Part shown: piece by piece, positions 6,706 to 58,830 of the stretch
How positions within the stretch are numbered: the first letter of the stretch is position 1
Layout: each line of letters opens with the position of its first letter
Origin: Candidatus Daviesbacteria bacterium
GTDB taxonomy: Bacteria > Patescibacteriota > Microgenomatia > Daviesbacterales > UBA10151
DNA length: 64,000 nt
Assembly: GCA_016176335.1 (NCBI GenBank)
Contig: JACOXI010000003.1
Location: forward strand, 6,920 to 70,919
Reading direction: 5' to 3'
Notes under the pieces: model-generated
Told to the model about the DNA's origin: nothing
Databases searched by the model: none
Seen by the model: only the letters and a program-made list of their open reading frames with translations
Translations under genes and position numbers: made by a program

Positions 6706-6739
6706 AGAGTCATCAGCTATCAGACGTCAGTCGTCAGAC

Positions 6740-7129: not shown

Positions 7130-7145
7130 CGACTGAAGACTATTT

Positions 7146-8111
7146 ATGAAAAAAGGCTTCACCCTAATAGAGCTGCTTGTTGCTGTTTCGATTTTAGCAA
7201 TACTATCCACTATTGGTATTACTGCCTTCCAGGGAACTCAATCCAAGGCAAGAGATACTGTCAGAAAAAATGACCTGAATGTCCTGGCCACAGCTTTGGA
7301 GATATATCGTGAGCAAAATGGAAAATATATTGTTAACAGTGACGGAACAAATATTACCACCTGCCCTTCCTCATCTGACACCACTTCTCCATTTTATACA
7401 CAAATTGCAGCTAATTTATCCACCCCTGCCCCAAAAGACCCTAAAACAGGATCTTTCTACTGTTACATTTCAGTTAGCAATGGTCAATCCTTCAGGCTTT
7501 TTGCCGGGCTGGAAAATTGTAGTGGTTCAGGCGGTAATTTATGTGAATATACTAACTACAACTATACTGTTATTTCAGAAGATATAAGCTTAGCTTCTGC
7601 CCCGTCAGATTCGCTGATTGCAAGCGCACCAACTCCTACTCCTTCCCCTTCCCCAACTCCCACAGCCACAACTTCTCCCTCTCCTTCAGCCTCTCCCACA
7701 GCTTCCCCTTCCCCTTCCCCAACTCCTACTCCTACAGCTACCTATACCTATATTCAAACCAACGTGGGTTGTAGTACTCCTTTGGGTTTGACTCCTGACC
7801 AACTCTGCCAAAGAGAGGTTTCTTCTACCTCTCGCTCCCAAGCAGTGCCTGGCAGCAGTACCATAATGGCCAAGGGTTACTGGTGGCAAGAATGCGGCGG
7901 GGCTTCGGTAAGTGACTGTGTAGGGCTGGATTGCACAGTCAATCAGCTTGATTGTACCAATACTCCAGGGTTTTGGGGTACACAAATACCTTATCCCTCT
8001 CATTACCTAAAAACAGGTAATAACATCACAGTCTTTGATCCTGATTCTCTTGGTTGGAGTTGCGATGGTTTTAGTCCCGGTTGGACTATGAGGGTGTATT
8101 GCTCCCGTTAA
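7146..8111 (+). CDS. Type IV pilin-like protein (prepilin N-terminal methylation motif) with PT-rich linker and Cys-rich C-terminal domain
   Basis: 'MKKGFTLIELLVAVSILAILSTIGITAFQG' is a class III signal with a conserved Glu5. A long (P/T/S)n linker follows, then a C-terminal domain with about 9 Cys. Confidence 0.75.
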   Translation: MKKGFTLIELLVAVSILAILSTIGITAFQGTQSKARDTVRKNDLNVLATALEIYREQNGKYIVNSDGTNITTCPSSSDTTSPFYTQIAANLSTPAPKDPKTGSFYCYISVSNGQSFRLFAGLENCSGSGGNLCEYTNYNYTVISEDISLASAPSDSLIASAPTPTPSPSPTPTATTSPSPSASPTASPSPSPTPTPTATYTYIQTNVGCSTPLGLTPDQLCQREVSSTSRSQAVPGSSTIMAKGYWWQECGGASVSDCVGLDCTVNQLDCTNTPGFWGTQIPYPSHYLKTGNNITVFDPDSLGWSCDGFSPGWTMRVYCSR

Positions 8112-8847: not shown

Positions 8848-8921
8848 GTTTCAAATAGATTTATGATTTATGAGATATGAGTTATGATTAAATTCATAAA
8901 TCTTAAATCATTGTTCATAAA

Positions 8922-9830
8922 TCACTTTTCCCTTTCCACCATATATTGCACCATTTCCGAAAATAACTTTCTCATTTTGGCATCAGAAGTAATCTTTGGT
9001 ATTACTCTTTTTGCTCTAAAAGCATATTTTAACGCTTTGGCCTCTGCCTTGTCCACTGATTCTACTTCCCCATCCAAAATATCATCTCTAATCTGAAAAG
9101 CAATCCCTGCATTCTCCCCGAATTCTTTTATCCCGCGAAGCCTTGGCGAAGTGGGACCTGCTCCTGCCAGAATTGCTCCGAGTTTAAGAGGGCCTGAAAT
9201 AGTATATCTGGCTGTTTTAAGTTTAGCTGTAAGCTTCGGGTCAGCATGGGCAACATCAAGCATTTGTCCTATGGCAGTATCCAGCATTGTTTGGGAAAAA
9301 AATCTTAAGGCCTGGTTTTTTAATTTATCTTCAAAGTTGCTTTCAGTAATAATTTTTATTGCCAGAAAAAAGCCTGCATCTGCCAAAGTGATGGCCTGCT
9401 CCACTCCTACGCGCTTATACAAGGAGGGCTGACCACGTCTTTTGGGACTTTGATCAATTATGTCGTCATGGGCCAAAATGGCAGCATGAAATATCTCATA
9501 AGCTGCAGCAATTTTAATAATAGAGCTTTCAGCTGTCAGTATCGCTTCGCCCGCCTTTGGCGTGGCTTCGCTGTCAGCTTTCAGACTTTTTTTGTCTTTG
9601 TCTGATTGCTGATAGCTGATAGCTGATGACTCTTTTGCAATCTCATATCCCAACACCACCAAAGTTCCCCTGATTCTCTTGCCTCCCTTGCAGGCTTTGA
9701 TGAATTTGTCAACCAAAGGCAATAGACTTCCGGAAGTCTTGCCAACCCCATTCCTCCATTCTTTTAACAATCTCTTTAACTCTTTATCAATGTGTTCAAC
9801 TGTTTTTTGACTAAATATCTTAAAATCCAT
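8922..9830 (-). CDS. Polyprenyl (geranylgeranyl/farnesyl) diphosphate synthase; carries an in-frame repeat insertion
   Basis: The first Asp-rich motif is 'AHDDIIDQSPKRRG'. A ~95-bp repeat-derived insert encodes 'SYQQSDKDKKSLKADSEATPKAGEA'. Confidence 0.85.
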   Translation of the reverse strand: MDFKIFSQKTVEHIDKELKRLLKEWRNGVGKTSGSLLPLVDKFIKACKGGKRIRGTLVVLGYEIAKESSAISYQQSDKDKKSLKADSEATPKAGEAILTAESSIIKIAAAYEIFHAAILAHDDIIDQSPKRRGQPSLYKRVGVEQAITLADAGFFLAIKIITESNFEDKLKNQALRFFSQTMLDTAIGQMLDVAHADPKLTAKLKTARYTISGPLKLGAILAGAGPTSPRLRGIKEFGENAGIAFQIRDDILDGEVESVDKAEAKALKYAFRAKRVIPKITSDAKMRKLFSEMVQYMVEREK

Positions 9831-13383: not shown

Positions 13384-14427
13384 ATGATAGGCATTGTTTC
13401 TTACGGAGTTTATATACCAATATTTAGGATCAAACCATCGCAAATTGCTCAAGCTTGGGGTAAAGGGTTTGGGGAAATTGAAAAATCTTTGGGGGTATAT
13501 GAGAAGACAGTTGCCTCATATGATGAGGATGCTATAACTTTGGCAGTTGAAGCCTCATACCAAGCTTTAGTAAACGCCCAAATCAAACCACAACAAATAG
13601 ATGCCATCACAGTTGGTTCAGAGTCCCATCCGTACGCTGTAAAACCATCCTCAACTACAGTGGCAGGAATTTTGGGGTTACCAGAAGAATTGCTGGCAGT
13701 AGATTTGGAATTTGCCTGCAAAGCAGGAACAGCAGGGATTCAACTACTTGCCGACTTTTCCCAGGCAGGTCATGCCAAATACTGCTTGGCAGTGGGATCT
13801 GATGTTGCTCAATCGCGTCCATCCGATGTTTTGGAATACACCGCCTCATCCGCCGCCGCAGCCTTTATTTTGGGTAAAAGTAATATCATTGCCAATATAG
13901 TAGATTTCACGTCTTTCTCTTCTGATACTCCTGATTTTTGGAGAAGAGACAGCGAAAAATTTCCCTCTCATGCAGGCAGATTTACAGGCTCCCCTGCTTA
14001 CTTTGCCCACGTATTAGGTGCATCAGAAAGGATGTTTGAGAAAACTAAAATGAAGCCTCAAGATTTTGATTATGCTGTTTTCCATATGCCCAATGCCAAA
14101 TTTCCCAAAGAGGCCGCCAAAAAATTGGGATTTACTCCCAAACAACTTGAGGCAGGATTTATTGTTCCCCAAATAGGCAACCCCTATTCTGCCTCATCAA
14201 TGATCGGTTTGGCTGCCATCTTGGATGTGGCAAAGGCAGGAGATAAAATTTTTATGTGCTCATATGGATCGGGAGCCGGTTCAGATGCTTTCATGTTTGA
14301 GGTAACAAAAGAAATTACAGCTCATCAAAAAAGAAATCAGGAAACTGTAACAAAACAAATTAAAGATAAAGAGTATATAGATTACTCACTAATTGCTAAA
14401 AATATTTTGACAAAGTACAGGATCTAG
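13384..14427 (+). CDS. Hydroxymethylglutaryl-CoA synthase (archaeal type)
   Basis: 'MIGIVSYGVYIPIFRI' is the archaeal HMGCS N-terminus. It sits in the mevalonate operon with thiolase and DUF35. Confidence 0.85.
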   Translation: MIGIVSYGVYIPIFRIKPSQIAQAWGKGFGEIEKSLGVYEKTVASYDEDAITLAVEASYQALVNAQIKPQQIDAITVGSESHPYAVKPSSTTVAGILGLPEELLAVDLEFACKAGTAGIQLLADFSQAGHAKYCLAVGSDVAQSRPSDVLEYTASSAAAAFILGKSNIIANIVDFTSFSSDTPDFWRRDSEKFPSHAGRFTGSPAYFAHVLGASERMFEKTKMKPQDFDYAVFHMPNAKFPKEAAKKLGFTPKQLEAGFIVPQIGNPYSASSMIGLAAILDVAKAGDKIFMCSYGSGAGSDAFMFEVTKEITAHQKRNQETVTKQIKDKEYIDYSLIAKNILTKYRI

Positions 14428-14538
14428 AGGAATGTAGAATTCAGAGTTTAGAGTTCAGAATGGTGTAGAATTTAGAATTCTTAAATTGATTATAAATTCT
14501 AAATTTAATTCTGAATTATGAATTCTTAATTATAAATT

Positions 14539-15672
14539 ATGAAAGTAAAAGTATTAGGAACAGGTCTTACTAAGTTTGGAGAGCATTGGGACAAAAGTCT
14601 TAAAGATTTGGCTTTTGCTGCTGCTAAAGAAGCCATTGAGGACTCAGGACTTGACACTGACAAAATAGATGCTGTCTTTGTTGCTAACATGCTCCATGGA
14701 AAGCTCACGGGACAGGATCATCTGGGAGCTTTAGTTGCTTCAAATTTAGGAATTGTTGGCGGAGCTTTTAGGGTGGAAGCAGCTTGCGCTTCAGGGGGAA
14801 TCGCCATACATTTGGCCATCCAATCTCTCATGTCTGGAACCTATAAAAATGTACTGGTGGTGGGAGCTGAAAAAATGACCGATGCAGGAGCCTCCGAGAT
14901 TTCATCAGCTTTAATGGGTGCAGGTAGTGAGGATGAAAGAAAAGCTGGGCTGACCTTTCCTGCTTTATATGCCCTGATGGCCAAAGCCCACATGCAAAAA
15001 TATGGCACCACAAGATCGCATTTAGCCTCTGTTTCTGTTAAAAATCATTATCATGCTTCCTTAAATGAAAAAGCTCAATTCCCATATGAAGTAACTTTAG
15101 AAAAAGTCTTAGAAAGCCCAATCATCTCCTCTCCTTTTACTCTTTTTGATGTCTGTCCTGTTACTGATGGGGCAGGTGCTGTAGTCTTAAGTTCAGATTC
15201 CACCCAACCTGGAGTTTTTATTACTGGCTCTGCTGTGGCCACAGATACTGTAGATCTTTCCCAAAGAAGTAGCCTAATAGAAATTGCCGCCACCAGGCAG
15301 GCTGCAAAAGAAGCTCTAAAACAGGCTGGGGTCAAAATAAGTGACATCAAAGTGGCAGAAGTTCATGACTGTTTCACCATTGCAGAAATTTTGGCCATGG
15401 AAGATTTGGGCTTTTGCCAAAAAGGCGAAGGTGGAAAGTTCATCCAAAAAGGCTCAACTAAACTTGGAGGAAGCTGTCCTGTCAATACTTCTGGAGGACT
15501 TAAGGCTTGCGGTCATCCTGTGGCAGCAACAGGAGTAAAACAAATTATAGAAATTACCCGTCAGCTACAAGGAAGGGTGGGTAAAAGACAAGTTGCAAAT
15601 GCAGATGTTGGTTTAACACACAATGTAGGAGGAACTGGAGGAACAGTGGTGGTACATGTATTACAAACTTAA
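14539..15672 (+). CDS. Acetyl-CoA acetyltransferase (archaeal-type thiolase)
   Basis: 'MKVKVLGTGLTKFGEHWDKS' is the thiolase N-terminus. It has the C-terminal 'GHPVAATG' motif. Confidence 0.85.
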   Translation: MKVKVLGTGLTKFGEHWDKSLKDLAFAAAKEAIEDSGLDTDKIDAVFVANMLHGKLTGQDHLGALVASNLGIVGGAFRVEAACASGGIAIHLAIQSLMSGTYKNVLVVGAEKMTDAGASEISSALMGAGSEDERKAGLTFPALYALMAKAHMQKYGTTRSHLASVSVKNHYHASLNEKAQFPYEVTLEKVLESPIISSPFTLFDVCPVTDGAGAVVLSSDSTQPGVFITGSAVATDTVDLSQRSSLIEIAATRQAAKEALKQAGVKISDIKVAEVHDCFTIAEILAMEDLGFCQKGEGGKFIQKGSTKLGGSCPVNTSGGLKACGHPVAATGVKQIIEITRQLQGRVGKRQVANADVGLTHNVGGTGGTVVVHVLQT

Positions 15673-15773
15673 AACTCAAATGTCAAAACTCAAAACTACA
15701 ACTATAATCTCAAAAGTTTTAAGATTTAAGATGCAGATTTGCAATTTGAGATCTAAGATTTGAGATAAATATT

Positions 15774-16094
15774 ATGAATAGTAGTCCTGTACAAATTTGG
15801 AGAAAACATAAAAATTTACATAATTACCTGGGTAAAACAGGTAGGCTTTTGGTTTGGACTAAGATCTTTGTGGCCCCAACCGGTTTTGAGCACCAAACCC
15901 CCTATATTGTAGGCATTGTACAATTTGAAGACCCTTCGACAAGTTCAGGGCAAGTTAGATTGCCTGCGCAAGTTGTAGATTGTCCTGAAGAATCCCTAAA
16001 AGTAAACCAAAAGGTACAAGTAGTGATCCGAAAAATAGGTAAAGCAAAAGCTGAAGATGTTATTGAATATGGAATAAAGGTAAAACCTTTATGA
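15774..16094 (+). CDS. DUF35 OB-fold/Zn-ribbon protein (partner of archaeal thiolase/HMGCS complex)
   Basis: It is a small protein immediately downstream of the thiolase. That is the conserved archaeal arrangement. Confidence 0.65.
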   Translation: MNSSPVQIWRKHKNLHNYLGKTGRLLVWTKIFVAPTGFEHQTPYIVGIVQFEDPSTSSGQVRLPAQVVDCPEESLKVNQKVQVVIRKIGKAKAEDVIEYGIKVKPL

Positions 16095-27474: not shown

Positions 27475-28845
27475 CTAATCGAACAACCCCAATTGTGGGG
27501 CTTGATCTTCCTTCTTTTCTTCGGCTCCGTCCTCTCTCTCGTTCCATATCTTCACCACCCCATATACTCCATCATAGCCCGGATCAATCACCAAATCTGC
27601 CTGTCGCACTTTTCCCACTCCTTCTGCAATCTTGGGGCCTGATATTTTGGCTATTTCATCTAAAGATGTTTTGGTCAAAACCTTTATCTCTCCTCCCAGA
27701 TTAGTCACTAACTTTTTATACTCTAAAATCACCTTTTGGGTTGTTGGAGCAGTATGAAAACTTTCAGCAATAATTTGTATTAAAGGCACCAGCATTCTAT
27801 ATCCCGGCCTAGTTGGAAAAGTTTTGCTTTTTATTACTCCTCCTTCATTGTCCATTGTCAATTGTCCATTGTTTCGCGAAGCGAGAACTTCCACCCTCTC
27901 CATTACCCCCACAGTCAAACCTCTACCGCATTTAGGGCAGATCGTACCTTTGGTCTTGGTCTCTTCCGGAGTATACTTTATATTACAATTTCTATGCCCT
28001 GTGTAATGATACTTTCCTTCTTCAGGATAAAATTCTATAGTTCCTGCAATTTTTTGCTCTTTTATTGTCATAAATAACCCTGAATAACCCTCACTTATCT
28101 CCCCATCAAATACTGTTGCTTCTCTGCCTAAATTTGGTAAGGAGTGGGCATCTGAAAAAGAGATAATTGATCTGTTGTCAAGCTCTTTTATCCTCCAGTT
28201 CATGGCCGGGTCAGAACTTAATCCTGTTTCTATTCCATAAATATACTGTGTTAGATCCTCAAAACATTCTTTCAGAGAATCATAGCCTGACTCGGAACCA
28301 AAAATTCCAAACCAAGGAGTCCAAGCATGAGCCGGAATAAAAAGAGCTTTTTCCGATGCCTGCAAGGCCAAAGACAGTAAGTCTTTTGAAGGTATTCCCA
28401 CAATAGGCCTGCCATCAGAACCTAAAGTTGCTCTTCTTGATAAAAGCTCCTTTTGAAATCTCTCCGCGGAAACAAAATCAGGCATAAAAACCAGATTATG
28501 TACTCTTCTTCCCCTACCTTTCTGGGAATACATTGAAGCAATTTCCACAGTTAAAACAAATCTTACCCCCCGCCTTTGGCGAGGCTCGCTCGCCTCGTGG
28601 CGAAGCAACGGGCCTTCGGCAGCTTCACCTTTTCCGCTTTCCCCTTTCATACTTAAAAATCCAGACCCATCCTCTGTCAAATCTTTTTTAAGCTCCGCAA
28701 ACCAAAGTGGGTGCAAAAAATCCCCTGTACCCAAAACATCAATGCCTTTATACTTTGCCCATTCAACCAAATTTGGAACATTTAATTGGGGGGAGCAGGC
28801 CCGGGAGTATTTGGAGTGAATATGCAAATCAGCCACATATGCCAT
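27475..28845 (-). CDS. PHP-domain nuclease, endonuclease Q (EndoQ)-like; carries two in-frame repeat inserts
   Basis: The N-terminus has the PHP motif 'VADLHIHSKYSRA'. A Zn-finger 'CPKCGRG' follows. This architecture matches archaeal EndoQ. The inserts are 'KGESGKGEAAEGPLLRHEASEPRQRRG' and 'ASRNNGQLTMDNEGG'. Confidence 0.55.
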   Translation of the reverse strand: MAYVADLHIHSKYSRACSPQLNVPNLVEWAKYKGIDVLGTGDFLHPLWFAELKKDLTEDGSGFLSMKGESGKGEAAEGPLLRHEASEPRQRRGVRFVLTVEIASMYSQKGRGRRVHNLVFMPDFVSAERFQKELLSRRATLGSDGRPIVGIPSKDLLSLALQASEKALFIPAHAWTPWFGIFGSESGYDSLKECFEDLTQYIYGIETGLSSDPAMNWRIKELDNRSIISFSDAHSLPNLGREATVFDGEISEGYSGLFMTIKEQKIAGTIEFYPEEGKYHYTGHRNCNIKYTPEETKTKGTICPKCGRGLTVGVMERVEVLASRNNGQLTMDNEGGVIKSKTFPTRPGYRMLVPLIQIIAESFHTAPTTQKVILEYKKLVTNLGGEIKVLTKTSLDEIAKISGPKIAEGVGKVRQADLVIDPGYDGVYGVVKIWNEREDGAEEKKEDQAPQLGLFD

Positions 28846-28849
28846 GAGG

Positions 28850-29383
28850 CTATTTTAGCATACCTTGTCTTTTGGCTAATCTTTTCTTGAATAGATTTTC
28901 TCTAAAACCACCTTCCCTCACAAATTTTTCTTCTAACCACCTCAGTTTTTGGTCAAGCAAACGGTTGGTTTGGTTAATGAGGCAGATAATGGCATTAGCT
29001 GCTTGTTCTGGGTTTTCAATATAATTTTTATAATCGTTATAACTATTATAATTGTTATAAACTAAGCTTCTTACTTTTTTAGCCTCTGGGGAATCCTTTT
29101 CCCAAAGTTTTAACCCCCTCTGCCTTAAAAAATCCAAATAATCATTTAAAAGTTCTTCTAAACTTCCCCTTGCTACTCCTAAAAGTTTAATTCTTCCTTC
29201 CAGGCTTTTTTGCAGATAACCTTCAGGAATATTTTGTTTTCCGGATCTGGCAGCCTGTTCCATCTGATCTTTAGTCCTGGATTTATAATCAATGTATCTT
29301 TTAACAAACTCAACAGTGAAGTCATAAATAATCTCAGCTTGTTTGAAGAAAGGAAGAGATTTGTAACCACCGGTTTGATTCAT
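28850..29383 (-). CDS. Four-helix-bundle protein (TIGR02436 family, long form)
   Basis: 'LPFFKQAEIIYDFTVEFVKRY' opens the protein. It has the C-terminal four-helix-bundle suffix region. An N/Y-rich segment comes from a 'ttataa' repeat duplicated upstream. Confidence 0.7.
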   Translation of the reverse strand: MNQTGGYKSLPFFKQAEIIYDFTVEFVKRYIDYKSRTKDQMEQAARSGKQNIPEGYLQKSLEGRIKLLGVARGSLEELLNDYLDFLRQRGLKLWEKDSPEAKKVRSLVYNNYNSYNDYKNYIENPEQAANAIICLINQTNRLLDQKLRWLEEKFVREGGFRENLFKKRLAKRQGMLK

Positions 29384-29424
29384 ATAACCGTTATAATTTT
29401 TATAATTATTATAACTTTTATATT

Positions 29425-33403: not shown

Positions 33404-33485
33404 GATTATAGCTATCAGTCTTCAGCTATCAGCTTTCAGACTGTACCTAAAAATGTCTGACGACTGACGACTGAAAGCCGACGAC
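33404..33485 (+). repeat. Palindromic 'CAGCTATCAG...GTCTGACGACTGACGACTGA' element (copy A)
   Basis: It matches copies at 42343..42422 and 56706..56785. Confidence 0.7.
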
Positions 33486-33521
33486 TACTTCAATTTTCGC
33501 ATATTTCCCGCAAAATTCCAA

Positions 33522-36500
33522 CTAAGGAATGACATATTCATCCCAACTTTTGATCTGTAAATCTGCTATTTTTTTGGAAGACAAACTTGATACTAATAAT
33601 TCTGCAGCTTGAAGATTGGTGATAAGCGGAATTCCCAAATCAATACAATGCCTTCTTATCACAAATCCATCCGTTTCTCCTTTGGAAGATCCTCCCACGG
33701 AGATATTGATGGCAAGATCAATATGACCTGCTTTCAGTAAGTCCAAAACCGACGGATGTTTTTTCTCTGAAATTTTGTAAACTCTTATACTACTTATTCT
33801 ATGCTGTTTTAAAAACTGATGTGTGTGTTCTGTGGCATAAATTTTAAATCCTAAACCGAAGAGCAGTTTGGCAGATTCCAGAAAATCCAGCTTATTTTTC
33901 TCTCCCCCAAGTCCCAAAAATACACTTTTCTTTGGCATTTTAAAGCCGGTTGCCAGCAGTGCTTTAAGATAGCCTTCCTCTAAGTCATCACCAAAACAGG
34001 CCACCTCACCGGTTGAGGACATCTCTACTCTTAACCTGGGATCTGCTCCTTTTATTCTGTTAAAAGAAAATTGAGGAGCCTTAACTGCTACATAATCCAA
34101 ATCTATAGTTTTAAAATCTCCCTGAATGTCCTCTCCAAGCATGACTTTTGTTGCCATCTCCACCAAGTTGTAACCGGTAACTTTGGAGACAAACGGGAAG
34201 GACCTCGAGGCTCTTAAATTAAGCTCGATCACTTTAATCTCATTATCTTTGGCTATAAATTGAATGTTGAACGGACCACAAATCTTAAGTTCTCTTAGAA
34301 TCTTTTTTGTAGCCTCTTTGATCTGTCTGACAGTTTCAAGGTAGAGTTTTTGCGGAGGCAAAACCAGCGTTGCATCACCGGAGTGAACCCCGGCATTTTC
34401 AACATGCTCTGATATGGCATAAATTAAAAGATTCCCGTTTACTCCTACTCCGTCAATTTCAATCTCTTTGGCGCCCTCCACAAATTTGGAGATAACAACA
34501 GGATGCTCACTTAAAATATCCGCTGCCTGTTTTAGATATTTTTTAAGCTCAGAAGAAGAGTAAGCAACATTCATGGCAGAGCCTGACAAAACATATGAGG
34601 GTCTGATCAAAACAGGGTAGCCAATTTTTCTTGCAAACTCTAGAGCATCACCCAAACTTTTAAGACTCATCCAGGCAGGTTGTTCAATGTTTAACTTATC
34701 CAAAATTTTGGAGAATTTATGCCTATCTTCTGCTCTGTCTATAGAAATAGGTGAGGTGCCGATAATTTTGTAGCCTGCTTTGTAACATTTTAAAGCTAGG
34801 TTGTTTGGAACTTGTCCACCAAAGCCCAAAACTAAACTGCCTTTTTCAATATCATAAATATCGGACACTCTCTCGAAAGTTAATTCTTCAAAGTATAATT
34901 TATCGGCCAAATCATAATCTGTGGAAACAGTTTCCGGGTTACAATTTATGATGATTGTTTCCAAACCTCTCTGCCTTAAGGTTTGTGCAGCGGTAACGCA
35001 GCACCAATCAAACTCCACTGACGAACCAATACTGTATGGTCCGGAACCTAAAACAATCGCTTGGTCCTTGAGTAGCTTAGGTGACTTAAGTGACTTAATA
35101 TTTGCCTCTGACTCTTCACCATGATAGGTCAAATATAAATAATTGGTCTTTGCCGGAAATTCTGCTGCCAAAGTATCTATGTGCTTGACCTTTGGGATAA
35201 TGCCATGTTTTTTTCTAAATTTCCTGACCTGTTCTTCTGTTGTGTTAAAAGCTTTTGCAATCACTCTATCTGAAAAACCCAGCTTCTTTGCTTTTGCAAT
35301 CGTCTGATTGCTCGCCTCGCTGAAGCTCTGGCGAAGCGGGCTGAAAGCTGAAGGCTGAAGGCTATCTTCAAACTCCGCCATCTCTTTAATTTGATGCAAA
35401 AACCAGGGATCAATGCCTGTTTCCTGATAAATTTTCTCGACACCCTCTCCTTTTGAAAACTCTTTGGCAATTGAGAAAAGTCTTTGTGATGTGGGAAGGA
35501 GTGTGCTACTATCAACTCCGTTTGATAAGCCGTCTTGCCCTATCTCCAGCATTCTAATAGCTTTTTGCAAGGCCTCCGGAAAAGACCTGCCTATTGCCAT
35601 GACCTCCCCCACACTTTTCATCTCCGATCCGATAGCCTCATACGCCCCCACAAATTTTTGTAAATCCCATCTGGGAATTTTAACCACAATATAATCCAAA
35701 GCAGGCTCAAAAAAAGCAGAAGTTGATAGGGTGATCCTGTTTTTTAAGTTGGGTAAGTTGTAACCCAAAGCTATTTTGGCAGCGATATATGCTAAAGGGT
35801 AACCAGTTGCTTTTGAGGCTAAAGCCGATGAGCGGGATAGCCTGGCATTAACTTCAATTACCCGGTAATCATTATTTCGGGGATTTAGGGCAAATTGAAT
35901 ATTACACTCCCCCAAGATCCCCAAATGCTCAATAACCTGCAAAGACAGTCTTCTTAAGAAGTGGTACTGATAATTGTTTAAGGTTTGTGATGGTGCAACA
36001 ACTATACTTTCACCGGTGTGAACCCCCATTGGATCCAAGTTCTCCATATTACAAACAGTAATCTTGTTTCCATTGTTATCTCGGACAACCTCATATTCAA
36101 TCTCTTTCCAGTGTTTTAAATACTCTTCAACAGTAATTTGGGGGACATGTTTTAAGGTGATTGACACCATTTTTACTAAATCTTCCTTATTACTCACCAC
36201 CCCTGATCCCAAACCTCCCAAGGAAAAACCTGATCTGACAAGAAGGGGGAACCCCAAATTTTCAGCAATTTCTTCTGCTTCTTTGACGGTTTTTGCAAAT
36301 CCACCTTTTGGAACTTTAACAGCAATTTTTGAAAGTGCTTTTGCAAACAATTCCCTATCTTCGGTTACTTCAATACTTCTAATCGGTGTTCCTAAAACTT
36401 TTACACCGTATTTTTTAAATATATCTTTTTTATCTAAAGCAAGGCCGCAATTTAAAGCAGTCTGTCCCCCGAATGAAAGGAAAATTCCATCAGGTTTTTC

Positions 36501-41072: not shown

Positions 41073-42288
41073 CTCCTTTCAAATATTTTTTACCCACCTG
41101 TTTGTATGCATCTCTAAAAGTTTCCCCTTTTAGAACCTGTTTCAAAACTTCCTCTGTGGCAAAAAGATCTTCTGTCATAGCAGCTTCTAACTTCTCTTTA
41201 TTAGGAGTTAAATTTTCTAGCAAAATCTTGGTTACCATAAGAGTTTCTAGGGTAATTTCTAAACTTTCTATCAAAGGTTTTTTGCTATCTTGCAAATCCC
41301 TGTTATAACCGGAGATTAAATTGCTCGAAAGGCTAACCATCTGAATATAATTTCCTAAAACAAGATGTACCTTTGATCTTAAAAGTTCTGCTAGATCAAC
41401 GTTTTTCTTTTGCGGCATGATGCTGCTGCCTGTAGTAATTTTACCTGTGGCTTTAAAAAAGCTAAATTCCGAAGTAGTAAAAAGCAGCACATCTGAGGCG
41501 AATTTATTGATTGTTTGCAAAACAGAAATCAAAGCGGCTATTATACTAGCCTCAATTTTTCCTCTGGAGTTTTGGCAATACAACGGGTTTTGTTGGACCC
41601 TGGTAAATCCTAAGAGCTTAGCTGAATACTCCCTATCTAATTTAATTGGCACACCATACCCTGCTCCTGAACCTAAAGGAGATTGGTTATTTAATTTATA
41701 AACGATTTTCAAAAGTGTCAGGTCGTTCTCTAAAGAATCAATAAAACTCCCTGCCCATAATCCAATCGATGAAGGCATGGCTTTTTGCATATGGGTATAA
41801 CCGGCCATTTGTATATAGCCATATTCTTTAGAAAAGCCTTTGAAACTTTTTGTTAAATTGGTAAGCTCGAGTTCAATACTTTCTAGTGCGTTCTTGCTAT
41901 ACAGCCGGATAGCAGTTAATACTTGATCGTTTCTTGACCTACCGGTGTGGATTTTTTTACCTATGTCACCATATTTTTCCGTTATATAGTTTTCAATTTT
42001 GGTATGCATATCTTCGTCTCCTATTTTCAGATCAAACTCACCCTTTTTATAAAGGTTTAATATTTCCTCAAAACCCTTCAGCAACTTCTTTAGTTCCGGC
42101 TCAGATATGATACCAATCAAAAATAATTTATTAAGCGTCTTCACATGAGCTATAGAAGCTAAGATATCATACTCAATTAGTTTTTGATCCATTAAAAGAT
42201 CCCCCTTTGTTTCAAAGGCTTCCACCACTGGGTCTAATTTTTTATTATTTTTCTGCCAAAGTTTTTTCATATTTCCTTTCCGGGCCAT
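41047..42288 (-). CDS. argH: Argininosuccinate lyase
   Basis: It belongs to the fumarate-lyase family. The 'GSSIMPQKKN' signature is present. Confidence 0.9.
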   Translation of the reverse strand: MARKGNMKKLWQKNNKKLDPVVEAFETKGDLLMDQKLIEYDILASIAHVKTLNKLFLIGIISEPELKKLLKGFEEILNLYKKGEFDLKIGDEDMHTKIENYITEKYGDIGKKIHTGRSRNDQVLTAIRLYSKNALESIELELTNLTKSFKGFSKEYGYIQMAGYTHMQKAMPSSIGLWAGSFIDSLENDLTLLKIVYKLNNQSPLGSGAGYGVPIKLDREYSAKLLGFTRVQQNPLYCQNSRGKIEASIIAALISVLQTINKFASDVLLFTTSEFSFFKATGKITTGSSIMPQKKNVDLAELLRSKVHLVLGNYIQMVSLSSNLISGYNRDLQDSKKPLIESLEITLETLMVTKILLENLTPNKEKLEAAMTEDLFATEEVLKQVLKGETFRDAYKQVGKKYLKGGDTNEKDD

Positions 42289-42346
42289 TAAAAAAGCCCT
42301 TGCAAGTTCCCAAAGATTAACTTTAGAAACTTACAAGGGCCTTATT
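42289..42346 (-). terminator. Terminator/attenuator-like hairpin immediately upstream of argH RBS (minus strand)
   Basis: On the minus strand 'aaggcccuuguaaguu' pairs with 'aacuugcaagggcuu' and is followed by 'uuuuuuaa'. It lies between the leader region and the argH SD. Confidence 0.45.
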
Positions 42347-42422
42347 TCAGCTTTCAGACTTCAGCTATCAGCTTTCAGACTTTTGTAATTGTCTGATGAC
42401 TGACGCCTGACGACTGATGACT
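42343..42422 (+). repeat. Palindromic CAGCTATCAG/GACTGA element (copy B) in the argH leader
   Basis: The sequence is 'cagctttcagacttcagctatcagctttcagactt...gtctgatgactgacgcctgacgactgatgact'. Confidence 0.7.
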
Positions 42423-42457
42423 AATCAAGACGGTGCCACCTTGCTTAAATTTTGCTA

Positions 42458-42643
42458 CAAAAAATCCTCCATTTCGGAGGATCACTGTAGAAAATTTATC
42501 TCTTACAGCGCTCCGTTGCCGACACGCTTGTTGAATTTTACAGTTCAACTTCTGTCATACTCTATCCTAAGACTTTGCTTGGGACTGACGTATGCTGCTT
42601 GCCCGCTGCGGCGGACTCAAACGCATTTAAAATATTAAATTGT
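42458..42643 (-). ncRNA. Candidate small RNA / argH leader RNA with consensus sigma70 promoter and intrinsic terminator
   Basis: On the minus strand the promoter is TTGACA(42678-42673)-N17-TATAAT(42655-42650). A GC-rich, structured ~190 nt follows. It ends in the hairpin 'uccuccgaaauggagga' plus U6 (42481-42458). The 73-aa + strand ORF here has no coding support. Confidence 0.4.
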
Positions 42644-42649
42644 AGATAC

Positions 42650-42678
42650 ATTATATCTAAAGAAAACTTATTTGTCAA
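42650..42678 (-). promoter_or_regulatory. Consensus sigma70-type promoter (TTGACA-17-TATAAT) driving the candidate sRNA/arg leader
   Basis: Both hexamers match exactly with 17-bp spacing. I read this directly from the minus strand. Confidence 0.5.
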
Positions 42679-42706
42679 ATCAATTAATGTTTGTTAAAGT
42701 GTAATT

Positions 42707-42967
42707 ATGGCGAAACAAAATCAGACCTCTTTCCGAAAAGAGCTAATCCAGCAACTTATCACCCTCTCCACCTCTGCCTTTGGTTTGGCAGCTGCTTTGG
42801 CCTGGAATGATACTATCCAGCAAACAGTCAAGGAATTTATCGAGCCAAGAATTCCAGGCTCAGGGATTTTCTCCAGATTTATATATGCCGGTATAGTCAC
42901 AATTTTAGGTGTAATTATCACTATCCAGCTGTCCCGTCTGGCCTCCCGTTGGGGACTAAAGAGGTAA
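42707..42967 (+). CDS. Small membrane protein (two predicted TM helices)
   Basis: It is 86 aa with hydrophobic segments 'LITLSTSAFGLAAALAW' and 'FIYAGIVTILGVIITI'. Confidence 0.35.
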   Translation: MAKQNQTSFRKELIQQLITLSTSAFGLAAALAWNDTIQQTVKEFIEPRIPGSGIFSRFIYAGIVTILGVIITIQLSRLASRWGLKR

Positions 42968-44054
42968 TCTTTCCATTCTCTACCCTCAAAATCCTGGAAG
43001 AATCCAAAAAGGTCTTGGGGATGTTTTCCAGCTCCACCGTGGCAATGATGGTCTGTTGTTTTCCCACCACTTCCACTACATGAGCTCTGTGCATAGCATC
43101 CAGTTCGGAAAAAACATCATCCAGCAAAAGTATTGGTCTTTTGCCTAAAATTTTGGCCATGTATTCAAGTTGAGCTAATTTAAACGCTAAAGTGGCTGTT
43201 CTTTGTTCACCACGGGAGCCAAAACGAGCCAAATTCCGATCTTCCAGTAAGATTTCAAAATCATCCCGATGAGGCCCAATCAAAGTGGCAGCTGCAGCCA
43301 CTTCCCGACCATTTGTTTCCATCAACCGCTCAACTGTCACTGCGCTTTGTTTATACTCAAACCTAAACTCACCTAAAGGTTTTTCCAAACCATTAATAAA
43401 ATTAAAAAAAACTTTTCTTTTTTCACTGATCACTGATCCCTTTTTTACCAACTCATCTGTCCAATAACTTAACTCGTCTGCTTTTCCATAGCCTTCTCTA
43501 ATTCTTTTTAGGATCCTGTTTCTGGAAGTTAAAAACTGCTCATATGAAGTCAGTGTCTTTTTATATTCAGGATCAATTTGTGCCAACCCCAAGTCCAAAT
43601 GCCAGCGGCGAAGACTTGGTGCACCTGCTACCATATTTATATCCTGGGGATAAAAAATTACGGCAGGCAAATTGCCGATAAAATCCAAAACTCTTCTTGG
43701 AACCCCGTTTACCAAAGCCTTTTTTCTAAAACTCACTTCATCGGATACCTTGTTGATAATCACTAAAAGCTCTGTTTCTATTTCCCCTTCTTTTAGAAAA
43801 CCCTCTACTCTGGTAAAACTTTCATTATCGTAAATCAGCTCGTCTTCAGTCCCAACCCTTAAAGACTTGGTGGTGGAAAGAAGATAGATTGACTCCAGCA
43901 AGTTTGACTTGCCCGCAGCATTATTCCCCACTAGGATGGTTGGCCGGGCATCGAATCGTAATTCGAGTTGTGCATAATTTCTGAAGTTAGTCAAATTAAT
44001 TTGCTTAAGAAACACGATGATGCCTAGAATAAAGAATAAAGAATCAAGAATCAA
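42921..44054 (-). CDS. recF: DNA replication and repair protein RecF
   Basis: 'LTNFRNYAQLELRFDARPTILVGNNAAGKSNLLESIYLLS' contains the Walker A motif. The SMC-like signature is present. Confidence 0.85.
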   Translation of the reverse strand: MILDSLFFILGIIVFLKQINLTNFRNYAQLELRFDARPTILVGNNAAGKSNLLESIYLLSTTKSLRVGTEDELIYDNESFTRVEGFLKEGEIETELLVIINKVSDEVSFRKKALVNGVPRRVLDFIGNLPAVIFYPQDINMVAGAPSLRRWHLDLGLAQIDPEYKKTLTSYEQFLTSRNRILKRIREGYGKADELSYWTDELVKKGSVISEKRKVFFNFINGLEKPLGEFRFEYKQSAVTVERLMETNGREVAAAATLIGPHRDDFEILLEDRNLARFGSRGEQRTATLAFKLAQLEYMAKILGKRPILLLDDVFSELDAMHRAHVVEVVGKQQTIIATVELENIPKTFLDSSRILRVENGKITSLVPNGRPDGTAG

Positions 44055-54488: not shown

Positions 54489-54579
54489 AACAAGTGATTT
54501 ATGAACAATGATTTAAGATTATGAATTTTATCATAAATACAATCTTCTAAATCATAGATCAATTCTGTACTATGATAGT

Positions 54580-56532: not shown

Positions 56533-58830
56533 TCATAACACTAATAACTTCATCTCTCCCCAATTGGGGCCTACTTTTAGATCCACCACTACTGGTACAG
56601 ATAATTTTAGGGCATTTTCCATTTTATCTTTGACCATTTGGGCAATTTCTTTAACGCTCTTGGGGTCACACTCAAACAACAATTCATCATGAACCTGGAG
56701 GATGAGTCGGCAGCTATCAGATCGTTCGCTGCGCTCACTGTCAGCTTTCAGACTGTCTGACGACTGATGACTGATGACTGATAACTCCTTATCAATTTCC
56801 ACCATGGCCTTTTTGATCATATCTGCTGCTGTTCCTTGAACCGGATGATTGATGGCTGCTCTCTCACCAGCTGCTTTGATGGCGTGATTTGAGGCTGTAA
56901 GTTCAGGGATATATCTTTTCCTGCCCCAAAGAGTTTCAACATACCCCCTTTCATATCCAAAGGCTAAAGTCTTTTGCATCCACTGGGAAACTTTGGGGAA
57001 TTGTGCAAAATATTCCGCAATATATGTTCGCGCCACCTCATATTCCACCCCTAACTGACGGGACAAGGCATGGGGGCCCTGACCATATAACGTTGCAAAG
57101 TTCATGGTTTTACCTACATTTCTTTGCTGTTTTGTAATTTTATCAATTGGCATTTTGAAAATTTTACTGGCAGTTGCTACATGAATGTCTAATCCTTCTC
57201 TGAAGGACTTTCTTAATCCCGGATCATCTGCCAAATGAGCCATAATCCTAAGCTCGATTTGTGAATAATCAGCTGCCAAAAGTACCTTGCCTTTGGGAGC
57301 AATGAAGGCGCGTCTTATTTCTCCACCCTCCTCACCTTTAATTGGGATATTTTGCATGTTTGGGTTTTGAGAAGACAGCCTGCCTGTGGCAGCTCCTTCC
57401 ACATTAAAAGTGGAGTGAATCCTGCCATCTAATCCTACAGATTTAGGCAAGGCATCTATGTAGGTTGATACCAGTTTGAAAAGCTGGCGATACTCTAAAA
57501 GTAATGGCACTACAGGATGAGCTGCTACCAACTCATGAAGGGTGGCCTCATCTGTTGATCTACCAGTTTTGGTCTTTCTCACCACTGGTAATTTAAGTTC
57601 GTCAAACAGAATCTGCGACAGTTGCTTTGGGCTGTTCGGATTAAACTCATGTCCTATTTTTGAGTAAATTTCTTTTTCTAATTTAATTAATCTACCTTTT
57701 AAGGCTTTCCCAAGTCTCTCTAAAAACCTTAAATCTATTAGTACACCAGTTTTGGACATCCTTTCTAAAACTGGCTGTACAGCTAAATCCAAATCCGTGG
57801 TATTTATGGAGTTAGCGAAGTCAGAGGTAGCCAAAAAATGTGGCGCAGTTGAGCGCACATCCTTATCCATGCTTGAATTACCTACTTGGCGCGAAACAAG
57901 TCCCAAGCGAGCGACCTGGTCGCGCGAGCGGTTTTTTGCATCCTGACGAGCTACTCCCACACCTGGAATCCTACCAATCAAACTTTTAAACTCCAATTCT
58001 TCAAACAATTTAACTACTTTTTCTTTATCAAAATCATGAACCTCACACTTCTTCAAATCTAACTTAATTGGGGCTTTGCCATCTAAGGTGGCTAGTTTTT
58101 TACTCATTACAGCATCTTCTGCACCTTCTGCCAACAGCTTTTGCATTCTTTGCGGTAAAGTTTTTAAATTCTTGGGACGGTAAATTTCTTCAATCGTGCC
58201 AAACTGGTGTATTAATTTTGTCGCAGATACATCCCCTATTCCAGAAACTCCCGGGATATTATCCGATGCATCTCCTGCCAGCGCCTTATAATCAACCAAA
58301 AGTTTGGGTGCAAATCCATATCTTGCCACAAACTCTTCCTCCCCATACAGCCCCACATCCGCAAGGGTTTTTTTAGGCATAAAAACTTTCACTTTTCCAT
58401 TAATCAGCTGCATGATATCCCGATCACCTGTCACAATAATAATTTCTAATTTCAAATTTTTAATTTTTAATGCTTGGCTTGCCAGTGTGGCAATCAGATC
58501 ATCTGCCTCATAACCTGATAAGCTAAATTGCGGCATGTTAAATGCCCTGATGACCTCATGCACTCTGTGATATTGATTACCCAATGCCTGATCCAGCTCA
58601 CGTCTTGTGGCTTTATATTGAGTATAAGCTTGATGTCTAAATGTCGGCCCCCTTTCATCCCAGGCAACGGCCAGAAATGTAGGTTTAAGCTCATTTAAAA
58701 CCTTCAGCATCATTGAGGAAAATCCATATACAGCATTGACCAGTTCTCCTTGGGAAGTAGTAAAAGGAGGAGTAGCATGATAAGCCCGATGCAGCAAAGC
58801 ATTACCATCAACTAAAACCAGTCGTTTCAT
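56533..58830 (-). CDS. polA: DNA polymerase I (5'-3' exonuclease + polymerase domains; no evident 3'-5' exonuclease domain); carries two in-frame repeat inserts
   Basis: The N-terminal 5' nuclease is 'MKRLVLVDGNALLHRAYHA'. The Pol A motifs 'DYSQIELRI' and 'QVHDELLFE' are present. Inserts lie at 57806-57960 (the 145-bp element) and 56706-56785. Confidence 0.9.
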   Translation of the reverse strand: MKRLVLVDGNALLHRAYHATPPFTTSQGELVNAVYGFSSMMLKVLNELKPTFLAVAWDERGPTFRHQAYTQYKATRRELDQALGNQYHRVHEVIRAFNMPQFSLSGYEADDLIATLASQALKIKNLKLEIIIVTGDRDIMQLINGKVKVFMPKKTLADVGLYGEEEFVARYGFAPKLLVDYKALAGDASDNIPGVSGIGDVSATKLIHQFGTIEEIYRPKNLKTLPQRMQKLLAEGAEDAVMSKKLATLDGKAPIKLDLKKCEVHDFDKEKVVKLFEELEFKSLIGRIPGVGVARQDAKNRSRDQVARLGLVSRQVGNSSMDKDVRSTAPHFLATSDFANSINTTDLDLAVQPVLERMSKTGVLIDLRFLERLGKALKGRLIKLEKEIYSKIGHEFNPNSPKQLSQILFDELKLPVVRKTKTGRSTDEATLHELVAAHPVVPLLLEYRQLFKLVSTYIDALPKSVGLDGRIHSTFNVEGAATGRLSSQNPNMQNIPIKGEEGGEIRRAFIAPKGKVLLAADYSQIELRIMAHLADDPGLRKSFREGLDIHVATASKIFKMPIDKITKQQRNVGKTMNFATLYGQGPHALSRQLGVEYEVARTYIAEYFAQFPKVSQWMQKTLAFGYERGYVETLWGRKRYIPELTASNHAIKAAGERAAINHPVQGTAADMIKKAMVEIDKELSVISHQSSDSLKADSERSERSDSCRLILQVHDELLFECDPKSVKEIAQMVKDKMENALKLSVPVVVDLKVGPNWGEMKLLVL
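56706..56785 (+). repeat. Palindromic CAGCTATCAG/GACTGA element (copy C) in-frame inside polA
   Basis: The sequence is 'cagctatcag...ctgtcagctttcagactgtctgacgactgatgactgatgactga'. It encodes 'SVISHQSSDSLKADSERSERSDS'. Confidence 0.7.
57806..57960 (+). repeat. ~145-bp dispersed repeat element, copy 3, in-frame inside polA (antisense to the gene)
   Basis: It aligns over its full length with the 13234..13383 and 26611..26759 copies. It is translated as 'ARQDAKNRSRDQVARLGLVSRQVGNSSMDKDVRSTAPHFLATSDFANSINT'. Confidence 0.8.

Follow-up and report, generated by a model that had tools for sequence, protein, structure and literature searches.

The intervening sequences (IVSs) of rRNA genes that are associated with S23p/PF05635 proteins, which are known from Leptospira and Coxiella and also from rRNA genes of the CPR, consist of terminal inverted repeats that form a stem and of an ORF in the loop (PMC4990558; bioRxiv 10.1101/2024.02.27.582315). 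They also exist in ORF-less versions, have a sporadic, mobile-looking distribution and have been called selfish, and their protein was still functionally uncharacterised in 2024 (PMC4990558; bioRxiv 10.1101/2024.02.27.582315). Here, we analyzed a 64-kb stretch of DNA from Candidatus Daviesbacteria (the window), which contains a cassette of like layout: its arms close a stem, whereby an ORF of the PF05635 family, encoding a four-helix-bundle (4HB) protein, is located in the loop. Unlike the rRNA IVSs, copies of the repeat under study are found in intergenic DNA and in protein-coding genes and not at the tips of rRNA helices, the arms are made up of regularly mismatched tandem heptamers instead of a near-perfect stem of 28 bp, and the copies within genes appear to be translated and not excised.

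Rickettsia palindromic elements (RPEs) in frame within genes were reportedly described by Ogata et al. in 2000. RPEs are in-frame inserts of ~100-150 bp in unrelated, often essential genes, to which they contribute a conserved peptide, and they occupy sites at which the fold tolerates them (PMC10969869). The repeat presented here is likewise a palindrome in frame within unrelated protein genes (12 of the 60 copies are located within ORFs), whereby this likeness is drawn from the published descriptions of RPEs. It is presumably unrelated to them in sequence and occurs in another phylum; furthermore, RPEs lack a heptamer build, no protein gene is known that has arms in common with them, and one polA loop is here occupied by at least eight different families.

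Tandem heptamers were described as the STRR heptanucleotide repeats of cyanobacteria (Calothrix, Nostoc), reportedly by Mazel in 1990, and the SDR of Nostocaceae are said to have been found by Elhai et al. in 2008 to be hairpins of 21-27 nt that are nested in tandem heptamers and are also present inside genes. To our knowledge, there is no known mobility protein for SDR. Two nested mini-hairpins of the window (7100-7121 and 9543-9571) appear to be analogous to SDR, whereby sequences and hosts differ. In Xanthomonas, GGGAATC arrays are present as convergent, i.e., inverted, array pairs at 70-75 loci per genome (PMC4692102), and TAACTGA arrays occur in Beggiatoaceae, Cyanobacteria, and Bacteroidetes (PMC4679880). 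With these heptanucleotide repeats, the repeat of the window shares tandem 7-nt units, a mostly intergenic location abutting start and stop codons, and the property that each of the three frames of a forward array contains stop codons; the convergent pairs of Xanthomonas have the same hairpin layout, and the nnnCTGA unit resembles TAACTGA. It differs from them by its fixed composite order, its fixed termini, and its CPR host, and the reports on these arrays draw no link to PF05635 genes or to in-frame insertion into essential genes (PMC4692102; PMC4679880). Like MITEs and REP/BIME sequences, the repeat is short, abundant, hairpin-forming, and non-autonomous and can be transcribed within operons; unlike them, it has arms of unit arrays, neither a parent transposase nor a RAYT was detected in the loci analyzed, and the associated gene is that of the 4HB protein. 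The element is thus a new family of known kinds, which joins RPE-like in-frame palindromes, an IVS-like cassette, and heptamer arrays. We consider it probable that it constitutes a dispersed selfish, IVS-like/MITE-like hairpin repeat of Candidatus Daviesbacteria, comprising a 4HB cassette and ORF-less derivatives.

Architecture and folding of the repeat

A preliminary description of the window had suggested a family of palindromic repeats that is located between genes, in the argH leader, and in frame within polA, ispA, and carB. All five reported copies were located in the window sequence, and their boundaries were refined (Table 1). The family is borne out as an intergenic repeat that is also present in frame in polA and ispA. 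The core motif CAGCTTTCAGAC at ≤1 mismatch yields 9 matches in the window vs 0.34 expected, a number that was reached in 0 of 100 shuffles, and GTCTGAYGACTGA at ≤1 mismatch yields 8 matches vs 0.05 expected. For carB, the in-frame heptamer array is present, but it consists of one arm only. In-phase runs of at least three CAGnnnn or CTGnnnn units occur 9 times in the window (0.36 in shuffles), and Tandem Repeats Finder detected a period of 7 at both sides of every window copy. In addition, the window as a whole has a period-7 excess, with 69 positions at lag 7 vs 0-3 at lags 4-12. This general excess, the build from 7-nt units, and the two arms that bracket a gene go beyond the preliminary description.

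Table 1. Coordinates of the repeat copies, the 4HB cassette, and further heptamer arrays in the window
Feature	Position (strand)	Description
Left cassette arm	6707-6739 (+)	GAG-TCA-TCAG-CTA-TCAG-ACG-TCAG-TCG-TCAGAC
4HB gene	6740-7129 (+)	129 aa; PF05635 23S_rRNA_IVP / TIGR02436
Right cassette arm	7086-7142 (+)	GTCTGA-AAG-CTGA-C, nested mini-hairpin AGGTCCGATGTTAAATCGGACC (7100-7121), ..CTGA-CGA-CTGA-AGA-CTA
Hairpin of a different family (GATTTAT / ATAAATC)	8853-8928	35-nt arms, 74% complementary, 6 nt apart
Copy D	9524-9632 (+)	Inside polyprenyl synthase (ispA-like) ORF 8922-9830 (minus strand)
Heptamer-array hairpin (GAATTCT / AGAATTC type)	14431-14538	Fills the gap of ORFs 13384-14427 and 14539-15672
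Heptamer-array pair (AAACTCA, then AAGATTT)	15665-15766	Fills the gap of ORFs 14539-15672 and 15774-16094
Copy A, canonical ORF-less	33409-33487 (+)	Between fic start and carB end
Copy A left arm		TAG-CTA-TCAG-TCT-TCAG-CTA-TCAG-CTT-TCAGAC, then 13-nt loop
Copy A right arm		GTCTGA-CGA-CTGA-CGA-CTGA-AAG-CCGA-CGA-CTA
carB one-armed array	35339-35363 (+)	3.6 heptamers (GGCTGAA); encodes SLQPSAFS; no inverted partner
Copy B	42344-42423 (+)	Upstream of argH (start codon 42288, minus strand); extended left arm, 5 units; loop 10 nt
Copy C	~56711-56786 (+)	Inside polA ORF 56533-58830 (minus strand)

The element is ~78 nt long and consists of two inverted heptamer arrays, TAG-(nnnTCAG)x4-AC and GT-(CTGAnnn)x4-CTA, which are separated by an A/T-rich loop of 4-16 nt. 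The alignment of 60 copies yielded the consensus TAG-CTt-TCAG-TCT-TCAG-CTa-TCAG-CTT-TCAGAC for the left arm and GTCTGA-CGA-CTGA-cGA-CTGA-WAG-CTGA-cGA-CTA for the right arm, whereby the loop is mostly T-rich as written. In the window, the element has a density of 6-7 copies per 64 kb. The arms had been supposed to pair, which holds for the TCAG/CTGA cores; however, they are not simple complements, since the 3-nt variable parts are systematically mismatched. The plain model of a hairpin parasite does not account for these mismatches.

The variable parts fall into two classes, CTx and TCx, each of which is present on both arms. Opposite positions carry opposite triplet classes in 330 of 430 pairs vs 184 expected, and perfectly complementary triplets face each other in 4 of the 430 pairs. 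Because the opposite triplets are of opposite class, every rung of the hairpin comprises a single C·A and a single G·U apposition, so that the RNAs of the two strands are not equivalent. An energy of -30 to -33 kcal/mol (z -4.9 to -5.7) is predicted for the strand antisense to the written element and one of -20 to -27 kcal/mol (z -2.3 to -4.0) for the written strand, and the 4HB-sense strand of the ORF-less copies is ~10 kcal/mol more stable than the other one. For copy A, the values are -33.1 kcal/mol (z -4.9) for the minus strand and -21.3 kcal/mol (z -2.9) for the plus strand, and the minus strand of copy B reaches -30.4 kcal/mol (z -5.7). Thus, in line with the palindromic nature that had been assigned to the copies, a hairpin is predicted for them with z-scores down to -5.7, and to -6.3 (-41.7 kcal/mol) for copy D, which contains a nested G+C-rich mini-hairpin at ~9543-9571. 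The stem is not followed by a T-run as in an intrinsic terminator, the right flanks being CTA and then mixed A/T, and a terminator scan of 42200-43000 flagged two other hairpins and not the element. An Rfam scan gave 0 family matches, so there is no rRNA in the window, and a tRNA scan of the window found none.

Insertion sites and dispersal

About 80% of the copies are located between genes, where they span exactly the gap. The stop codon of the adjoining gene is often provided by the TAG at the end of the copy (or, on the other strand, by CTA), and the next start codon follows a few nt beyond the copy (2-3 nt in places). The distance of copy A is 5 nt to the start codon of fic (33403) and 35 nt to the stop codon of carB (33522). 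Copy B is flanked by terminator-like hairpins at 42483-42463 and 42340-42296 and has a sigma-70 consensus (12/12) upstream at 42678-42650 (minus strand), from which it is plausible that this copy is part of the argH leader, between promoter and argH.

The 12 copies inside ORFs (of 335-809 aa) are all antisense to the written orientation and use one frame, in which they encode ..SSVVSRQSSD(x)SLKADSEAS... This combination of orientation and frame is the sole one without stops. Canonical arms put TGA in all three frames, because CTGA recurs every 7 nt. In the coding copies, the arm encoding SLKAD has a 10-nt-longer module (AGCGAAGCGAG-like), which resets the phase after two CTGA units, so that there is no in-frame TGA. 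Copy C, which is read antisense to the written element, carries the extra module CGTTCGCTGCGCTCACTG, which keeps the frame open, and encodes LSVISHQSSDSLKADSERSERSDSC, whereas copy D encodes SSAISYQQSDKDKKSLKADSEATPKAGEAILTAES. The in-frame peptides that had been described before are indeed present, including KELSVISHQSSDSLKADSERSERSDSCR in polA and SLKADSEATPKAGEAILTAES in ispA. The loops of the polA copies are 1, 7, and 16 nt long and thus differ by multiples of 3. Since the frame is maintained, the in-gene copies are most likely translated and not spliced out. One gene contains three inserts (locus L020), and the ispA-like site is variable, whereby the ortholog in locus L005 is without the insert as such.

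The site within polA (DNA polymerase I), a surface loop, turned out to be a hot spot. The segment from KKAMVEID to LILQVHDE comprises 44 aa in the window polA vs 22 aa in the shortest Daviesbacteria orthologs, and in 119 Daviesbacteria orthologs with 69-76% identity its length varies between 22 and 58 aa. Approximately 20 of these 119 orthologs have no insert, and the rest contain at least eight unrelated families of hairpin-derived peptides. The TCAG-type copy is common to 12 of the 119 orthologs, and the site is occupied in the loci L043, L047, and L048. On the DNA level, four of the insert families have one and the same design, in which an A-rich loop of 9-14 nt separates 3-5 heptamers from 3-5 inverted ones, with AAATTGA, CTAGGAN, AGAGTCA, and ACAGTNG as the respective units. 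The insert type does not go along with polA similarity, being shared by nearest polA neighbours in only 28 of 119 cases, although the tree is star-like. Either there was repeated insertion into this loop or a resident hairpin was replaced by the currently active family, and repeated hits as well as hairpin replacement point to structure- or site-directed turnover. Two more insert families (VIPAKAGI..SRIKSGMT and SVIASEAKQS) resemble other palindromic repeats, and half-elements and short remnants are also present at the loop.

The assumption that there are more copies outside of the window proved correct. A search of one-genome-per-species collections with the gapped pattern CAGCTTTCAGAC N1-31 GTCTGAYGACTGA led to the identification of 57 additional loci, which are distributed over more than 20 MAGs, mostly of Candidatus Daviesbacteria (CPR), whereby all compared genomes are MAGs. 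The other loci belong to a few Gottesmanbacteria or other Patescibacteria and to three Omnitrophota contigs. Several loci are located in MAGs labelled as "uncultured Gammaproteobacteria," a label that is doubtful because polA of those MAGs is 72% identical to that of the window. One MAG of 0.9 Mb contains 11 exact-pattern matches, and none of the viral contigs searched contains the element. Among the copies, 45 pairs are at least 88% and up to 97% identical, loop included, whereas their flanks are at background identity.

Polymorphism between genomes, which the preliminary description had regarded as a sign of mobility, was detected at orthologous sites as presence or absence of the element and as ORF-less or gene-filled states. 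In locus L009, a copy is located between two conserved genes, which follow each other without a spacer in L036, and the window has unrelated A/T-rich sequence instead of a copy at the equivalent site. The site behind the gene ending with ..KWSEI* is occupied by an ORF-less hairpin in L005 and L053 and by a 4HB-filled cassette in the window, L058, L066, and L068. The two forms have opposite internal orientation at this site and thus are not linked by a simple deletion. Copies can also persist for long, such as the one upstream of fic, which is common to the window and L036. Many copies are retained at their site in several species (fic upstream; polA), which is also compatible with a retained host function, and very recent bursts were not evident among the copies compared. 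Judged from these sequence comparisons, the element was dispersed in a copy-paste manner, with mobility over evolutionary time rather than in recent events. Its ends are (A)TAG...CTA(T) with A/T flanks, whereby a TA duplication is inseparable from the palindrome and the sole empty site (L036) is strongly diverged.

It could also be that the hairpins are host-functional RNA signals, such as elements of intercistronic processing or stability, terminators, or translational regulators, which are kept by selection in the way of REP/BIME stem-loops or of the role proposed for TAACTGA arrays. The exact fit of the copies into intergenic gaps, which begins at the stop codon and leaves 2-3 nt up to the next start codon, the conservation of some sites across species, the position of copy B in the promoter-to-argH leader between two terminator-like hairpins, and the strong fold on one strand would agree with this, and translational regulation has been proposed for arrays of heptamers ending 1 nt upstream of start codons (MacGregor 2015, PMC4679880). 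However, the copies between co-directional genes occur 12 vs 14 times in the two orientations and thus without bias, despite the ~10 kcal/mol better fold of one strand, as would be expected for DNA parasites rather than for host RNA signals. Moreover, the same family is found within coding regions of essential genes, its sites are gained and lost between species, the missing T-run after the stem speaks against intrinsic terminators, and there is no match to an Rfam family, so that we regard a host signal as unlikely. Because an orientation bias is absent despite the unequal folding of the strands, we infer that most copies are neutral or parasitic, whereby individual copies may have been co-opted by the host.

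The four-helix-bundle cassette and heptamer arrays

In the cassette, the left arm begins 1 nt past the stop codon of ORF 5899-6705 and ends directly at the ATG of the 4HB gene, and a pilin-like gene starts 3 nt beyond the right arm, at 7146. The right arm encodes the C-terminus of the 4HB protein (..KSLKAD..) together with the TGA stop codon. Therefore, the SLKAD(S) of polA and ispA is encoded by the same DNA as the 4HB C-terminus. Nearly all close 4HB homologs (70-88% identity) end with GLIKSLKADS. Ten metagenomic 4HB genes of the Daviesbacteria type (at least 79% identity) have TCAG arms and are located in at least five genomic contexts, and in these genes as well as in the window cassette the final codons SLKADS* belong to the arm. 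In the MFE RNA fold of the whole cassette, 6707-6739 pairs with 7086-7142 across the ORF, with an arm duplex energy of -29.6 vs -14.4 +/- 3.5 in shuffles. When reversed in orientation, the inner three heptamer pairs of the ORF-less copies agree with the cassette arms, which means that the coding copies are read in the 4HB sense. We infer that the ORF-less copies are non-autonomous relatives that were derived from the 4HB cassette. The loops of the ORF-less copies were also inspected for traces of the 4HB gene and show A/T-rich similarities only (e.g., ..ATTAAAA before GTCTGA), which were judged unconvincing. A nested insertion of the 4HB cassette within an older hairpin was considered as well and is not needed, both forms having four rungs with a different order of rung types.

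The 4HB protein matches Pfam PF05635 over the full profile length (E 1.1e-36) and TIGR02436 (E 1.1e-36), has no match in PADLOC, and is identical to a deposited protein that is annotated as "four helix bundle protein." Its nearest solved relative is XCC0516 (PDB 2gsc, E 1e-18), and the solved relatives 2gsc and 2rld contain five chains each as deposited. The ~120-aa helical bundle shows no obvious catalytic site. The protein is distantly Avd-like (PHROG "Avd protein of DGR," E 3e-9), whereby the family scores are below threshold (Pfam bAvd 21 bits vs a cutoff of 40; NF033474 23.7 vs 80). XCC0516 and bAvd are homopentamers, and bAvd binds to its reverse transcriptase as well as to nucleic acid. 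Unlike the Avd of a DGR, the 4HB gene of the window has no RT and no TR/VR pair near, its neighbours encoding a protein of unknown family and the pilin-like protein, and the cassette is no DGR. From the five-chain relatives, the arms of 4-5 units, and the likeness to Avd, it may be speculated that the 4HB protein is a candidate array-binding factor. Within 0.52 Mb of element-rich loci, the 4HB gene is the sole gene between arms (arm pairs 200-3000 nt apart), and the remaining arm pairs at this distance represent independent neighbouring copies. A linkage of the arms to a transposase, a recombinase, or a reverse transcriptase was not detected in these loci.

An association of 4HB genes with heptamer arrays is also present outside of the TCAG family. 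The genome loci contain two other 4HB genes, which have inverted arrays at their flanks that are made up of AATTGAC (L029) and of a GATAGAAGG-type unit (L048). Out of 78 metagenomic 4HB genes with 42-88% identity, 58 have inverted repeats at their flanks above the 95th percentile of the control, and lag-7 periodicity was likewise found for 58 of 78. The heptamer unit follows the 4HB subfamily (TCAGnnn, GAGTTCG, GGACTAC, TAAGACn, AGGAACT, and others). In PLSDB, 26 plasmids encode a 4HB homolog, nearly all of them cyanobacterial, and heptamer arrays, mostly inverted, are located at the 4HB gene in all 12 plasmids inspected, which include plasmids of Nostoc, Calothrix, Anabaena, Pseudanabaena, Geminocystis, Picosynechococcus, Stanieria, and Leptolyngbya, as well as Gemmatirosa. 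Some of the plasmid 4HB genes lie within CRISPR-Cas operons, where genes of this type have been noted earlier without an explanation (PMC3936711). In the literature that could be searched, there is no link of PF05635/S23 proteins to heptamer repeats, and the consistent coupling of PF05635 genes to heptamer arrays is apparently unreported.

An ordinary MITE that is moved in trans by a classical transposase (e.g., of the IS630/Tc1 type with TA target duplication), with the 4HB gene as a passenger, would likewise be small, be present in many copies, and have terminal inverted repeats, the ends (A)TAG...CTA(T) of the element are compatible with TA duplication, and in-frame fusions are known for the MITE-like RPEs (PMC10969869). 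We nevertheless assign a low probability to this explanation, as the 0.52 Mb of element-rich DNA contains the 4HB gene and no transposase between arms, the arms are tandem heptamers and not a unique TIR, TA is indistinguishable from an extension of the palindrome, and the layout of a gene between heptamer arrays recurs with unrelated heptamers in other phyla, which argues against a chance passenger. Local polymerase slippage giving heptamer microsatellites, with a likeness of copies that is convergent simple-sequence composition, would fit the general period-7 excess of many different units in the window, the unit numbers differing between copies, and Mrazek's idea of heptamer slippage (cited in PMC4692102), but it is highly improbable given the ordered composite build (termini, unit order, the CTT-TCAGAC / GTCTGA-YGA junction, and even loop sequences), the identity of up to 97% between copies at unrelated sites, and the opposite-triplet rule, which is not expected from independent slippage in each arm.

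According to the selfish hairpin repeat that we favour, the ~80-bp elements would be the ORF-less form of the 4HB cassette and would relate to it as MITEs do to transposons, or as ORF-less do to ORF-bearing IVSs. Copies would have been pasted into many sites and would survive in two kinds of place, namely exactly between genes, where the element ends supply stop codons, and in permissive surface loops of proteins, where they would be inserted in the sole stop-free orientation and frame and translated into a hydrophilic Ser/Lys/Asp-rich peptide. As a working guess, insertion may be structure-directed, at hairpins or stop-codon-proximal sites, and may possibly be aided by the Avd-like 4HB protein binding to the heptamer arrays.

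More tentatively, and rather doubtful as a whole, it might be possible that array-bracketed 4HB genes constitute a widespread unrecognised mobile cassette, of which the rRNA IVS is a special case, with the heptamer repeats and the in-frame hairpins of the CPR as ORF-less progeny and the 4HB protein as recogniser and spreader. This cassette class would be present in CPR, Cyanobacteria, and Gemmatimonadota and probably in Xanthomonas and Bacteroidota. The rRNA IVSs would be cassettes that landed in rRNA helices, and STRR, GGGAATC, TAACTGA, and the in-frame CPR hairpins would all be ORF-less progeny. The arrays would be the target of a pentameric Avd-like 4HB protein, which would recognise one unit per subunit and would direct the spread into hairpin loops and gene ends, possibly with a reverse transcriptase like Avd in DGRs.

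Three long-standing puzzles may be one, namely the PF05635 protein, the origin of heptanucleotide repeats, which were described in 1990 and are still unexplained, and the in-frame palindromes in essential genes. In the window, a PF05635 gene, heptamer repeats, and in-frame palindromes are found within one system. The weight of the finding lies in the coupling of PF05635 genes to heptamer arrays and in the polA hot spot. Testable material is given by the 129-aa protein with a 4-5-unit array as candidate ligand, by an orthologous site in ORF-less and gene-filled states, and by a polymerase loop with at least eight hairpin families. In addition, hairpin inserts that go unnoticed introduce spurious segments of low complexity into CPR proteins and can shift annotated stop and start codons.

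Further heptamer arrays in the window belong to other families (Table 1). A CATTGTC array in ORF 27475-28845 was considered as an insertion and rejected, as there is no insertion relative to the orthologs. The hairpin with GATTTAT / ATAAATC units fills the gap from the stop codon of the ispA-like gene (8922-8924, inside the array) to the start of the next gene (8847). It is like the TCAG element in architecture and unlike it in sequence.

Nested and non-TCAG hairpins in the window

Several copies of the TCAG family, a ~78-nt hairpin element in which two inverted arrays of TCAGnnn heptamers flank an A/T-rich loop, carry in an arm or in the loop a ~22-nt mini-hairpin, (A)GGTCCGATGTTAAATCGGACC. 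Within the window, it makes the protein of the four-helix-bundle gene (4HB; PF05635) ~8 aa longer (..DRSDVKSDRY), and a G+C-rich mini-hairpin is nested at 9543-9571 in the copy in the ispA-like gene. These mini-hairpins are reminiscent of the small dispersed repeats of Nostoc, which are themselves nested in heptamers. The window also harbors heptamer hairpins that resemble the TCAG family in architecture but not in sequence; several of these non-TCAG intergenic hairpins exactly occupy the gaps between genes, and one such array contains the stop codon of the ispA-like gene.

A perfect sigma-70 consensus is present upstream of argH, where a TCAG copy (42344-42423) also lies, with a terminator-like hairpin on either side. 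The region 42296-42678, for which Rfam yielded no match, could be a leader or attenuator.

Features of the window and of compared loci (L) and polA orthologs (P)
Feature	Position or locus	Strand
Mini-hairpin (A)GGTCCGATGTTAAATCGGACC	7100-7121; also L058, L018 (~955-985), L001	
Sigma-70 consensus, TTGACA-17-TATAAT	42678-42650	minus
Terminator-like hairpins	42483-42463; 42340-42296 (20 bp plus T-run)	
GATTTAT hairpin, intergenic	8853-8928	
GAATTCT hairpin, intergenic	14431-14538	
AAACTCA/AAGATTT hairpin, intergenic	15665-15766	
AATCATA hairpin, intergenic	54502-54561	
9-mer TATAATnnT palindromes	29020-29060; 29382-29423	
polA with either loop peptide	P0122, P0124, P0127, P0142, P0162, P0184, P0220; P0138, P0163, P0174; others	
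4HB cassette, then pilin-like gene	window; L058, L065, L066, L077, L084-L086, L088	
4HB in CRISPR-Cas operons (L142, L149, L151)	cas6/cas4 interval; cmr2/cmr3 interval; beside cas4	
Inserts in L020 (6780-7140)	TCAG half-element; AGAGTCA array; full TCAG element	
"Uncultured Gammaproteobacteria" MAGs	L008, L011, L015, L018, L021, L025, L027, L029, L036, L048; others	

In-frame inserts in proteins

In other lineages, the same polA loop (between KKAMVEID and LILQVHDE) is occupied by the peptides VIPAKAGI..SRIKSGMT and SVIASEAKQS, both of which resemble translated copies of other palindromic repeats that are widespread. The minus-strand ORF 27475-28845 contains a G+C-rich in-frame insert at 28515-28611 (..GKGEAAEGPLLRHEASEPRQRRG..) that is missing from its orthologs in L009 and L036, the former having another insert (..ATLRQAQGKL..) elsewhere in the protein. 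In L020, one aminoacyl-tRNA-synthetase-like ORF holds three separate heptamer-derived inserts.

Neighbors and hosts

The 4HB cassette (the gene with its bracketing arms) is directly followed by a gene for a type IV pilin-like protein with an N_methyl motif (7146-8111 in the window), an order found in Daviesbacteria as well as in a distant lineage where GAGTTCG arrays accompany the 4HB genes. Immediately 3' of polA, two genomes carry a 4HB gene (L048, 5735-6092; L144, 2833-3195) that is accompanied by a further heptamer family. On three plasmids of cyanobacteria, CRISPR-Cas operons contain 4HB genes accompanied by heptamer arrays; these genes have the look of insertions, not of cas components.

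MAGs from binchicken assemblies entitled "uncultured Gammaproteobacteria" contain Daviesbacteria-like genes (72% identity to the window for polA, 91% for fic), and this title looks wrong. TCAG copies were also found on three Omnitrophota contigs (L031, L034, L035; about 52% G+C), which suggests either transfer between phyla or mis-binning.
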